A stretch of DNA of 64,000 nucleotides from Thermoplasmatota archaeon. Its GTDB lineage: Archaea; Thermoplasmatota; JAKEGO01. Shown here one piece after another: positions 48,699-55,157 of the stretch. The notes under the pieces were generated by a model that saw only the letters and a list, made by a program, of their open reading frames with translations, searched no databases and had not been told where the DNA came from. Numbering within the stretch: the first letter of the stretch is position 1; each line of letters opens with the position of its first letter. The DNA lies in contig JANQNK010000001.1 in NCBI GenBank assembly GCA_028279595.1, forward strand, positions 32,001 to 96,000. Direction: 5' to 3'. The position numbers and the translations under genes were made by a program.

Positions 48699-48852
48699 GG
48701 AGGAGACGGTTCTCCTGTGTCCTCACTGTCTGAAGTCCAATCTGAAGGTCGTCGGCGGTTTCATGGGGACTCAATACCTCTGCAAGGATTGTGGGTATCA
48801 GGGTGCCTTGATCCTCGAGGTCGACGAGAAGGATGTTCCAGATCAGGATTGA
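48688..48852 (+). CDS. Small zinc-ribbon protein, 54 aa (not in ORF track)
   Basis: MMSEEETVLLCPHCLKSNLKVVGGFMGTQYLCKDCGYQGALILEVDEKDVPDQD*, with a GGAGGAG SD. Confidence 0.8.
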   Translation: MMSEEETVLLCPHCLKSNLKVVGGFMGTQYLCKDCGYQGALILEVDEKDVPDQD

Positions 48853-52432: not shown

Positions 52433-55157
52433 GGCCGGCCTTCTCTATAATCTCCTGAGCCTCGCCTTCAAGTTTATCCGCTAAGGGATCCTTACCTATG
52501 GAACGGTATAGTTCGATAGCAATCTGGATAAGTTCCACACCCCGGGCAGGCTCATCAGCCGCAATATTCATTTGACCATACTGGTAGTTCGCCTCTGCGA
52601 GGAGAACAGGAATATTCATACCGGTAATCTCATGAATCGTTGTCACAAATTGGTCTTCCGCCTCCTCCCAACGTTTTTCATTTGATAATACAACTGCAGA
52701 TTCAATCCCAATGTAAGCTAATCCAACCCGATCCCCTAATTTTGTTAAGATTTCTTTTGATTGAGACAGGCAATCCCATGCAGCTTGAAAATCACCTCTT
52801 CTAGTCATCACATCTGAGCTATTGAACAACGCCCAAGCCTTCAATTTTGGATAACCACTATTTTCTGCTACGGTAATTGATTTTTTCCAATAGTCTAATG
52901 CCTCATCAAACAATTCAGCATTATAATGGACAGTTCCAAGATTATTGTAAACCCTTCCTAAGGCATAACTCATTCCCATATCAGAGAACGCTTGAATTGC
53001 TGTGTTATAAAGCTCTATTGCTCGTTCCATCTCTGTAATTCTAATATTATTTGCCATATCAACTAAGATCTCACTTTCAAGTAACGAATCATTTGCATTC
53101 TGTGCCAACTCAAGTGCCTTTTCAAAATATTCAGTAGCTTCTTCGGACTCACCATTCCGCCAATGGACCTGTCCAATACTTCGATAAGCATCGCCAAGTA
53201 TAACTGAATCATCGATCTTCTCGGATATTTCGACACTCGCTTTGAAGTGGTCCAAGGCATCCTTCCAATTGGCCCTTTCATAATCGATCTTTCCGAGGTT
53301 CTTCCAGGCAGACCCAAGGACCGGTTGATTATCAGTTCCAGCCCACTTGATCGCCTCTTGGTTCTTCTCTTCTGCGGTATCCCAATTGTTCAATCCCATC
53401 TCAATGTCGGCGATCAACAGGAGGAAATCTGCCCTGAGCTTCTTCGGGACGTCCGTCGTTTCAATGTCAAGTGTATTCTTGAGGTCTTCAAGATAACCGC
53501 GAAGGATGAGTTCCCTTCCTCTCTCGACAGCAAGGTCAGCAGCCCTTCCCGTCTCACCGCCGCTCTTGTAATGGTATATCGCCTCCAGGATCGGCTCCTC
53601 TCCTTCAGCTGACAGGAAATATCCGGCCGCATTCAGATGCTGTCCACGTATCTCTTCCTTCGGTATTGTAGATATCAGGAACTCCCGGATCAGGTCCGAG
53701 ACCTTGTAACCAGAATAGGTGATCTCCTGAACCAGGATATGATTGATCAATTCCTCCAGGATGTCGTATTCCGAGGTTGATTCGATGAATGCCTCTGGAA
53801 GGACCGGTCTTCTGAAGATCGCCAGCTTGGTGATGAACTCCCTCTCGGCCGGCTCCAGCTGTGAAAGGATCTCGCTCTGAATGAACCTTCGCAACTCACT
53901 GGGCTTGACCAGGTCGTGCGGATCTCGCATGAGCTCGATCGAGAGGGGATGACCTCCAGTCGCCTCGTAGATCCTACTGATGTCGGGGACCTGCAGGTCC
54001 TTTGCCTCGAGGAGCAACCTGGTGCTATCGAGGTCCAGCCCCATCAATCGCTGCTCCTGAACCCTGCCTGAGATTATGTCCTTTTGCGTATAGAATGCCG
54101 GGATGTTCCTCGTCAATACGACGATGTTCGGGCCCCCGTATCTCTCAAAAACCTCCAGGAACAGGCTGAGAAGACCTCCCATCCGGTCCTCCGCCTTCTG
54201 CAGGTCGTCGAAGATCAACAATCCTTCCATGTCCTGGAAGTCCTTGGAGACCAGCTCGAAGATGTCATAGAGGTCGATCGTGATGTGCTCCTCCTCCACC
54301 GAGGAGAGCCTCTTCTTCGACCTCATGTATCTCCGGAGGTTATCCTTTCCAAGCTTGTGCAGGAATTCCGTAAGTGGTGTGAGAACAGCACGATAGGTGT
54401 CCCACTCATGGAACTGGTAATAGTAGATGTTCATCTCTGGCGAATACTTCTCGATGAGCTTGTTGGCGAGCGAGCTCTTGCCGATACCCGCGATCCCCTG
54501 GACCACGACGACTCTACATTCACCCTTGAGGTGAGTATCGATCGACTCGAGATCCTCCTCGCGGCCGAAGAAGTGCCTGGGAGCGGGCAAACCCTCGACA
54601 TGAACGATGAAGGGCCGAGCCTCGTCCTCCTCCCTTCTCTTGGCGTCCTCGAGGAGCATGTCTACATTGATCTCATCCGCAGATGGGATATTGACGTCCC
54701 TGATCAGGTCCAGGGCAGTGATGTCCCCACCCACATGGGTCATGATCTCTTCGAGGGTCCCCGAGATCTTCTCCTTCTTGAAGGTCGCATCGTAGTCCAT
54801 GTCCATGACCTGATCGAGCCTGGACCTGCCGAGCTCCAATCCCTTGTGGTTCAGGAAATAGACGTTCCGGCGCTTCTCAACACCGATGATATTCGCCTTC
54901 TTGGTTATCATGACGTCGAAGGTCTCGAACTCCTTCAGGGCCCTGGAGACGTGAGTCCACTTGATGCCCACAGCCTTCGCTATCCCTTCCTGAGTGACAT
55001 CGATAGGCATGGATTCAATGATCGTGTCCAGGGACTCCCATTCATGCCCCATGTACCTCTCGGCGGAGTAGTCCATGAGATGGATCAGGATCTTGTCCTT
55101 CACCGTGATCATGTCCGCATGGGGCACGATCGGCCCCATCTCCTCCGCTTCCGCCAT
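52425..55157 (-). CDS. wHTH - STAND - TPR protein, paralog 2
   Basis: TQEGIAKAVGIKWTHVSRALKEF; GIAGIGKSS, LIFDDL, VLTR and GGHPLS; many TPRs. Start is 55157 or 55112. Confidence 0.9.
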   Translation of the reverse strand: MAEAEEMGPIVPHADMITVKDKILIHLMDYSAERYMGHEWESLDTIIESMPIDVTQEGIAKAVGIKWTHVSRALKEFETFDVMITKKANIIGVEKRRNVYFLNHKGLELGRSRLDQVMDMDYDATFKKEKISGTLEEIMTHVGGDITALDLIRDVNIPSADEINVDMLLEDAKRREEDEARPFIVHVEGLPAPRHFFGREEDLESIDTHLKGECRVVVVQGIAGIGKSSLANKLIEKYSPEMNIYYYQFHEWDTYRAVLTPLTEFLHKLGKDNLRRYMRSKKRLSSVEEEHITIDLYDIFELVSKDFQDMEGLLIFDDLQKAEDRMGGLLSLFLEVFERYGGPNIVVLTRNIPAFYTQKDIISGRVQEQRLMGLDLDSTRLLLEAKDLQVPDISRIYEATGGHPLSIELMRDPHDLVKPSELRRFIQSEILSQLEPAEREFITKLAIFRRPVLPEAFIESTSEYDILEELINHILVQEITYSGYKVSDLIREFLISTIPKEEIRGQHLNAAGYFLSAEGEEPILEAIYHYKSGGETGRAADLAVERGRELILRGYLEDLKNTLDIETTDVPKKLRADFLLLIADIEMGLNNWDTAEEKNQEAIKWAGTDNQPVLGSAWKNLGKIDYERANWKDALDHFKASVEISEKIDDSVILGDAYRSIGQVHWRNGESEEATEYFEKALELAQNANDSLLESEILVDMANNIRITEMERAIELYNTAIQAFSDMGMSYALGRVYNNLGTVHYNAELFDEALDYWKKSITVAENSGYPKLKAWALFNSSDVMTRRGDFQAAWDCLSQSKEILTKLGDRVGLAYIGIESAVVLSNEKRWEEAEDQFVTTIHEITGMNIPVLLAEANYQYGQMNIAADEPARGVELIQIAIELYRSIGKDPLADKLEGEAQEIIEKAGLT

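Follow-up and report, generated by a model that had tools for sequence, protein, structure and literature searches.

What switches a pair of STAND-type regulators when the genes lying between them encode two peptides of about 20 residues and a caspase-fold protein that has lost its catalytic residues? The question is raised by a cassette within a 64,000-nt window (positions 32,001 to 96,000 of contig JANQNK010000001.1, assembly GCA_028279595.1) of a 2.29 Mb genome of a Thermoplasmatota archaeon, a stretch that is also represented in a coral metagenome. The two regulators, S1 and S2, each combine a winged helix-turn-helix (wHTH), a STAND ATPase module (nucleotide-binding, NOD) and tetratricopeptide repeats (TPRs), and enclose a peptide gene, the gene of the pseudo-caspase, here called C, and a second peptide gene. 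Our analysis confirms that these regulators, the selected micro-peptides and the putatively secreted pseudo-caspase form a conserved module of uncultured marine archaea, which recurs in the genome G002 and in the JGI contig L075. The STANDs belong to a known family, whereas the papers searched describe neither the family of the peptides nor that of the secreted pseudo-caspase, nor their combination; the initial annotation's view that no archaeal system with this layout has been described holds for that literature, most subscription journals having lain outside the search. The features of the cassette are as follows (window positions; SD, Shine-Dalgarno site; ORF, open reading frame).

48843-51440, minus strand: S1, wHTH-STAND(NOD)-TPR regulator of 865 amino acids (aa), from Pfam matches and motifs
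51493-51505, no strand: inverted repeat TTAC-N5-GTAA, candidate operator, 96 nt 5' of peptide 1
51574-51580, plus strand: SD of peptide 1, GGAGGTG, retained in L075, L079 and G002
51589-51651, plus strand: peptide 1, 20 aa, an SD-led ORF with the family motif and no export signal
51665-52360, plus strand: C, probably secreted clan CD pseudo-protease of 231 aa, from profile and fold model
52367-52432, plus strand: peptide 2, 20-21 aa, its SD overlapping the stop codon of C
52419-52438, plus strand: GC-rich hairpin, possible terminator, across the region where peptide 2 and S2 overlap
52425-55157, minus strand: S2, wHTH-STAND(NOD)-arm-TPR regulator of 910 aa, PH0952-like, the conserved paralog

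All five ORFs thus lie at the positions and in the orientation first described: S1 diverges from peptide 1, C and peptide 2, which are all on the plus strand, and S2 converges on these three. The ends of peptide 2 and S2 overlap by 8 nt, including the S2 stop codon, and the hairpin at 52419-52438 has the same sequence in L075 and in the short contig L078. Peptide 2 could start at ATG 52367 (21 aa) or GTG 52370 (20 aa), the latter being the more likely start from the spacing used by the L075 orthologue.

Two regulators of the PH0952 type

Both S1 and S2 match Pfam HTH, AAA_16/ATPase_2 and TPR_12 models, and their Walker A, Walker B, sensor Arg and GxP motifs are intact. They are 27% identical overall, with 38% identity in the wHTH, 31% in the NOD and 15% in the TPR region, which bears out the earlier description of receptors with common wHTH and ATPase motifs and diverged TPRs. 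Homologs of these STAND-TPR proteins occur in 29 of the 61 genomes of the phylum that were searched. MalT of E. coli, a relative with a NOD and a TPR sensor like those of S1 and S2, has a C-terminal LuxR domain and responds to a sugar inducer. PH0952 of Pyrococcus horikoshii (PDB 6MFV) shares the same NOD and TPR sensor, has an ArsR-like domain for binding DNA at its N-terminus and an arm, and is a predicted transcription factor (PMC6468293). S2 matches PH0952 by sequence (E 1e-20), and the Foldseek search with its model (predicted local distance difference test, pLDDT, 85.9) ranked 6MFV first, followed by LGN/Pins TPR-peptide complexes. S1 gave no direct match to 6MFV, and its kinship with PH0952 runs through its homology to S2. 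With a DNA-binding effector, an arm and a TPR sensor all found in S2, the wHTH architecture and the PH0952 homology fit the transcription-factor type of STAND that had been proposed.

Orthologues of S2 were placed in G001, G002 and L075 by a quick tree with long branches, which was used solely for that purpose. Those of S1 in L075 and G002 sit on long branches, S1 being the fast-evolving and S2 the conserved paralog. Third-position GC content is low across S1 (48843-51440) and the last third of S2 (52425-53300), and the rest of S2 is host-like; the same pattern is seen in the L075 and L059 equivalents, three lineages in all. On this composition, the AT-richness around the cassette is a conserved property of the region and not the trace of a recent swap. 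A recent exchange of the S2 TPR region was considered and rejected, because the drop is common to L075 and G002 and the S2 TPR is 79% identical to that of L075.

STAND-TPR sensors are common in antiviral defence (PMC12803255), and the fast evolution and AT-richness of S1 would suit a system in which S1 and S2, as paired NLR-like or Avs-like receptors, detect proteins of foreign origin while the peptides and C serve as decoys or mimics. We consider this very unlikely: the sole effector is a wHTH, the nearest relative of solved structure is itself predicted to be a transcription factor, PADLOC returned only generic TPR/HTH matches and no fitting system model, and the cassette is flanked by housekeeping genes, at a site that is the same in the window and L075.

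The pseudo-caspase and the peptides beside it

C alone has no Pfam or NCBIfam match, but a family profile built from 19 homologs matches metacaspases (E 6e-5), and the fold of its model (pLDDT 90.6) matches metacaspases and legumain (template modelling score about 0.68 for these) as well as MALT1. The caspase-hemoglobinase fold of clan CD is therefore present, as it is in the caspase-fold domain of GPI transamidase and the legumain C13 relatives, but the His-Cys dyad is not: in the profile alignment, the catalytic His is replaced by Asn110 and the catalytic Cys by Asp152. The family comprises about 50 clusters and is distinct at E below 1e-30. Its full-length members are single-domain proteins of about 230-280 aa with an N-terminal hydrophobic segment; none has the Cys and many have the His. 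Wherever the site is covered in the representatives P0006-P0048 the Cys is absent, but among more distant relatives many retain both residues. The N-terminus of C is basic with a hydrophobic core, as it is family-wide, which probably makes it a signal peptide and C a secreted protein. An EF-hand-like loop near residues 194-205 is conserved, and mature C is strongly acidic (45 D/E versus 4 K/R). The loss of the dyad, the hydrophobic segment, the EF-hand-like loop and the fold model make a dead, probably secreted and calcium-binding protease fold well supported, in line with the secreted, catalytically dead caspase-fold protein of the initial annotation. C is the only match to the family profile in its genome, its nearest Atlas cluster is all archaeal and mostly Thermoplasmatota, and scans of metagenome and viral contigs for its clade found none. 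One homolog, P0005 at L078:22-765, has an unrelated N-terminus (MetallophosN) and probably lies on a chimeric short contig.

Among known proteins, C resembles in kind the bacterial pseudo-orthocaspases, which also have a caspase fold without the dyad (PMC6426788); in these, Tyr and Ser take the place of the dyad, whereas C is a single-domain, secreted, archaeal protein with varied replacements in its family and a tie to TPR regulators. A STAND ATPase with a repeat sensor beside a caspase-fold gene also recalls the apoptosome (APAF1 or CED-4 with a caspase) and Avs, an analogy that had been drawn for this locus. The analogy fails, because C is dead and bears a signal peptide and because the STAND effector is a wHTH. 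Unlike those systems, the cassette has an inactive and exported caspase-fold protein, no active cytoplasmic caspase or other toxic effector, no death-fold adaptor and no nuclease or NADase effector.

The two peptides, described at the outset as homologous, agree at nine of 15 core residues, six of the nine through different codons. The family, whose members are 20-42 aa long and charged, has the motif hydrophobic-hydrophobic-[RKH]-x-x-[ST]-[LM]-[KR]-[EQ]-[ILV], which among the 3363 SD-led small ORFs of the genome is matched by peptides 1 and 2 only. No hydrophobic core was found in any of them, consistent with the absence of an export signal noted before. Differences between orthologues (six pairs) fall 10, 0 and 31 times on the first, second and third codon positions, and this pattern marks the ORFs as being under protein-level selection. 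When each peptide was scored with its own lineage left out, seven outscored all 3175 background small ORFs and that of G009 outscored all but one. A hidden Markov model of the peptides run over 401 genomes gave five matches below 1e-5, all of them training members beside C, and nothing further below 0.01, matches above that value being treated as chance; the ESM Atlas yielded nothing for the peptide. We take the peptides to be real and ancient, and predict that they are translated; within the sequences searched they occur at C loci only. The alternative that they are untranslated by-products of duplicated ribosome-binding regions, for which one could cite the duplicated SD and start region in contig L116 (see below), is extremely unlikely given the codon-position pattern, the strong SD in every case and the scores against background. 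An RNA run yielded one 151-nt piece at depth 2 reaching from peptide 1 into C, which may be DNA carry-over and was not used as evidence.

Several candidates for further members were rejected. Three matches to the peptide DNA pattern in genome contigs came from unrelated bacteria and were taken as chance, a pattern match in G137 lies inside a longer ORF, a small ORF in L050 runs antisense within a STAND gene, and a third micro-protein has a motif score within background. Another family of micro-proteins, SD-led and about 31 aa long, differs in motif from the cassette peptides and has two copies at G000:C4:105499-105591 (-) and G000:C4:183423-183512 (+), with near-identical upstream DNA and one of them just 5' of a wHTH gene, and a weak match at G002:C142:4456-4533 (-). 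The cassette peptides also resemble the end of a wHTH recognition helix or the C-terminus of zinc proteins encoded near other C genes (family f16, below), a likeness over so few residues that it serves as a lead only.

A small peptide gene coupled to a STAND ATPase with TPRs has a precedent in the actinobacterial FxSxx-COOH systems (PMC7159879), and the peptides might accordingly be precursors of ribosomally synthesized and post-translationally modified products. S1 and S2 do give weak NCBIfam matches, far below cut-off, to the FxSxx_TPR and HaaT models, and a PqqD gene lies just beyond S1. However, this gene is part of a housekeeping operon lying upstream and is missing at the G002, L113 and G009 loci, no zincin peptidase or SPASM radical SAM gene was found at any peptide locus, and the conserved motif is internal, with variable C-termini. 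Unlike the FxSxx-COOH systems, the cassette has neither their metallopeptidase and radical SAM nor a conserved C-terminal core, and a wHTH replaces their vWA or TIR domain, making this explanation highly unlikely.

Recurrence of the module and the cognate-pair question

The full layout of two STANDs and two peptides is found in G002, which belongs to a different family (C 43% identical), and in L075 (C 68% identical), and the short contigs L078 and L079 have the same peptides. A scan upstream of more distant C genes revealed peptides in three further lineages: L113, with one peptide and one convergent STAND; L116, with two tandem peptides; and G009, with one of 42 aa. The peptide-bearing C proteins fall on three deep branches. 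C is convergent with a STAND-TPR gene in six loci (the window, L075, both G002 loci, G005 and L113) and with TPR fragments in L114 and L154, and most loci of C homologs adjoin an HTH-TPR or STAND-TPR gene, the peptide often being absent; the C members in L155, L156 and L157 have neither partner. In family f16, 31 of the 42 C copies lie directly 3' of a TPR gene of about 450 aa, whose product, in those scanned, is a wHTH-TPR protein without the ATPase, and the motif peptide was not found at these loci. C is thus the constant member of these loci, although the counts describe the linkage rather than test it, because the loci are not independent samples. Recurrent synteny had been named as support for the proposed system: the layout does recur in related genomes, but several loci with a STAND and C have no peptide.

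Family f16 loci (for example L066:479-2958 and L068:4113-6558) encode a wHTH-TPR protein, a pseudo-caspase and then either a 124-aa zinc-type protein or secreted proteins; with several copies per genome, they present an archaeal architecture that resembles RRNPP systems but in which no peptide was identified. At L060:7479-12917 (G002:C18), four tandem pseudo-caspase paralogs end at a convergent STAND-TPR gene, and three of the four have a common upstream motif, GTTATA[AC]C.

The initial annotation had proposed two cognate receptor-peptide pairs. This is weakened by the peptide cores, in which 8-11 of 15 residues (53-73%) are alike across and within genomes where the TPRs fall to 15-30% identity (between the window and G002, 30% for S2 and 19% for S1). 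Conservation of the peptides above that of the TPRs suggests a conserved target rather than a receptor-specific code. The contrast counts only partly against cognate pairs, because contact residues in the RopB clan evolve more slowly than the rest of the TPR domain. The proposal is weakened further by the fact that the tightest link of the peptides is to C, by the peptide-less loci with a STAND and C, and by G009, where no STAND is adjacent.

The close association with C raises the possibility that the peptides act on C itself, by binding its dead cleft through the conserved, P1-like Arg/Lys/His, by chaperoning it, or as cis-acting leader ORFs that couple its translation or secretion, the STANDs merely regulating the operon. 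Every peptide found directly adjoins C, and C is strongly acidic; the residue at the former Cys site is Asp or Asn in peptide-bearing C proteins and Arg, Ile, Pro or Ser in peptide-less ones of the same clade. In L116 (positions 69-240), moreover, the two peptide ORFs and the start of the C gene have an identical SD and first six codons, which hints that peptide and signal-peptide starts have been swapped by duplication or conversion. On the other hand, C has a signal peptide and the peptides have none, the majority of C homologs occur without a peptide, and Glu or Asn is also seen at the former Cys site in many f16 proteins. A leader ORF is a poor fit for peptide 2, which is located downstream of C. 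Taken together, we regard an action on C as rather unlikely. A complex prediction of the 42-aa G009 peptide with its own C and with a stand-in S2 TPR gave no answer (score 0.00).

Control of the operon and the target of the peptides

The divergent promoter contains the inverted repeat TTAC-N5-GTAA, extended to perfect 8-bp arms at 51489-51509, and L075 and L079 have the same arms, likewise at exactly -96, around a spacer of different sequence. The recognition helices are similar among the C-linked STANDs of the window's order and L113. The repeat and the helices fit control of the operon by the STANDs, with the repeat as a candidate operator. TTAC-N5-GTAA occurs seven times in the genome, and the other six sites reveal no clear regulon.

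We tentatively propose, as a reading that may well have to give way, that the STANDs control the operon and that its peptides act back on them within the cell. S1 and S2 would act as PH0952/MalT-type regulators, with an N-terminal wHTH, an ATP switch and a TPR sensor, and would control the enclosed operon through the divergent promoter. C, secreted, probably calcium-binding and catalytically dead, would function outside the cell as a binding protein. The two leaderless peptides of about 20 residues would remain in the cytoplasm, since the lack of a hydrophobic core places them in the compartment of the STANDs and not with mature C, and there they would bind a conserved STAND surface, serving as small inhibitors or modulators and not as codes specific to one receptor. 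The architecture, the intact ATPase motifs, the loss of catalysis in C, the selection on the peptides and the recurrent linkage are established by the sequences; transcriptional control, the operator, the target of the peptides, the sign of the feedback and the role of C are inferred. MalY, which inhibits MalT, provides a precedent for protein inhibitors of a transcriptional STAND (PMC10427625).

Several observations weigh against this proposal. A third paralog in the same genome, S3, is accompanied by neither C nor a peptide. The distance from a peptide to C is never more than about 135 nt, and the G009 peptide and C have a receiver-domain gene upstream and no adjacent STAND, on a contig that ends 475 nt upstream. 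No peptide was detectable at four of the eight loci of the window's clade (G002:C18, G005, L114 and L154), two of which sit on short contigs. Peptide and STAND numbers do agree in complete loci, 2:2 in three and 1:1 in L113, but the three are orthologous and the match therefore amounts to two independent cases. Finally, the inverted repeat was not found in G002.

By layout, the closest working likeness of the cassette appears to be the RopB-SIP-SpeB system of the RRNPPA group (PMC10518010), in which an HTH and TPR regulator, an unannotated, SD-led leaderless peptide ORF and a secreted cysteine-protease gene also come together; the arrangement thus recalls the peptide signalling of Gram-positive bacteria. 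The likeness is one of layout. Unlike RopB-SIP-SpeB, the cassette receptors have a STAND ATPase, the peptides are longer and charged, the protease is a dead one of clan CD and the host is an archaeon. An adjacent small ORF with a strong ribosome-binding site is present as in RRNPPA systems; the cassette nonetheless falls outside that group because of its receptor architecture, with a STAND module between HTH and TPR where RRNPPA regulators are ATPase-free (the form seen in the f16 partners), and because its peptides are neither propeptides with a secretion signal nor hydrophobic leaderless peptides of 8-10 aa.

The same likeness suggests cell-to-cell signalling, in which the leaderless peptides or their fragments would be exported and re-imported and would bind the TPR groove of S1 and S2 to activate the operon, C being the output that is secreted, in the part that SpeB plays for RopB. 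The logic would be that of RopB, its leaderless SIP and SpeB, a secreted cysteine protease encoded next to them (PMC10518010), and, since SIP is leaderless, the missing export signal is compatible with it. The S2 TPR is closest to LGN/Pins TPRs solved with bound peptides, and OPT-type peptide transporter genes lie near L113 and, by sequence resemblance, L061. Nevertheless, known leaderless peptides are mostly hydrophobic and of 8-10 aa, whereas those here are charged and of 20-42 aa; they do not diverge alongside the TPRs, no exporter or processing gene is conserved across loci, and several loci with a regulator and C have no peptide. Signalling of this kind therefore seems doubtful to us.

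The neighbourhood of the cassette includes a small wHTH gene (55237-55644) that is divergent from S2 and is also found in L075. An operon at 47512-48850, retained in L075, converges on S1 and encodes a PyrK-like electron-transfer subunit, the stand-alone PqqD and a zinc-ribbon protein of 51-53 aa. Between the wHTH gene and a DEAD-box helicase gene lies an AT-rich block (55700-59800) encoding a 532-aa ATPase, a DUF2299 protein and a 376-aa protein without assignment; missing at the L075 site, it appears to be a strain-specific insert.

Archaeal quorum sensing is poorly characterised (PMC13464002). True peptide communication at this locus, with leaderless peptides that are exported, come back in and switch STAND transcription factors of NLR-like build, and a secreted dead protease as extracellular binder or output, is in our estimate improbable, but if true it would be a case of RRNPP-style peptide signalling working through the switch of a STAND ATPase. 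PH0952-type STANDs are present in nearly half of the phylum genomes searched, and the accessible part of the PH0952 structure paper names no inducer, peptide or partner gene (PMC6468293), whereas the STANDs of the cassette come as a pair, with peptides and a pseudo-protease linked to them. The locus supplies candidates for the ligands, chemically simple ones, as well as for the operator and the output gene, and what switches archaeal STAND-TPR transcription factors thereby becomes testable. Apart from the peptides, the secreted pseudo-caspase family marks loci of HTH-TPR regulators in uncultured Thermoplasmatota.

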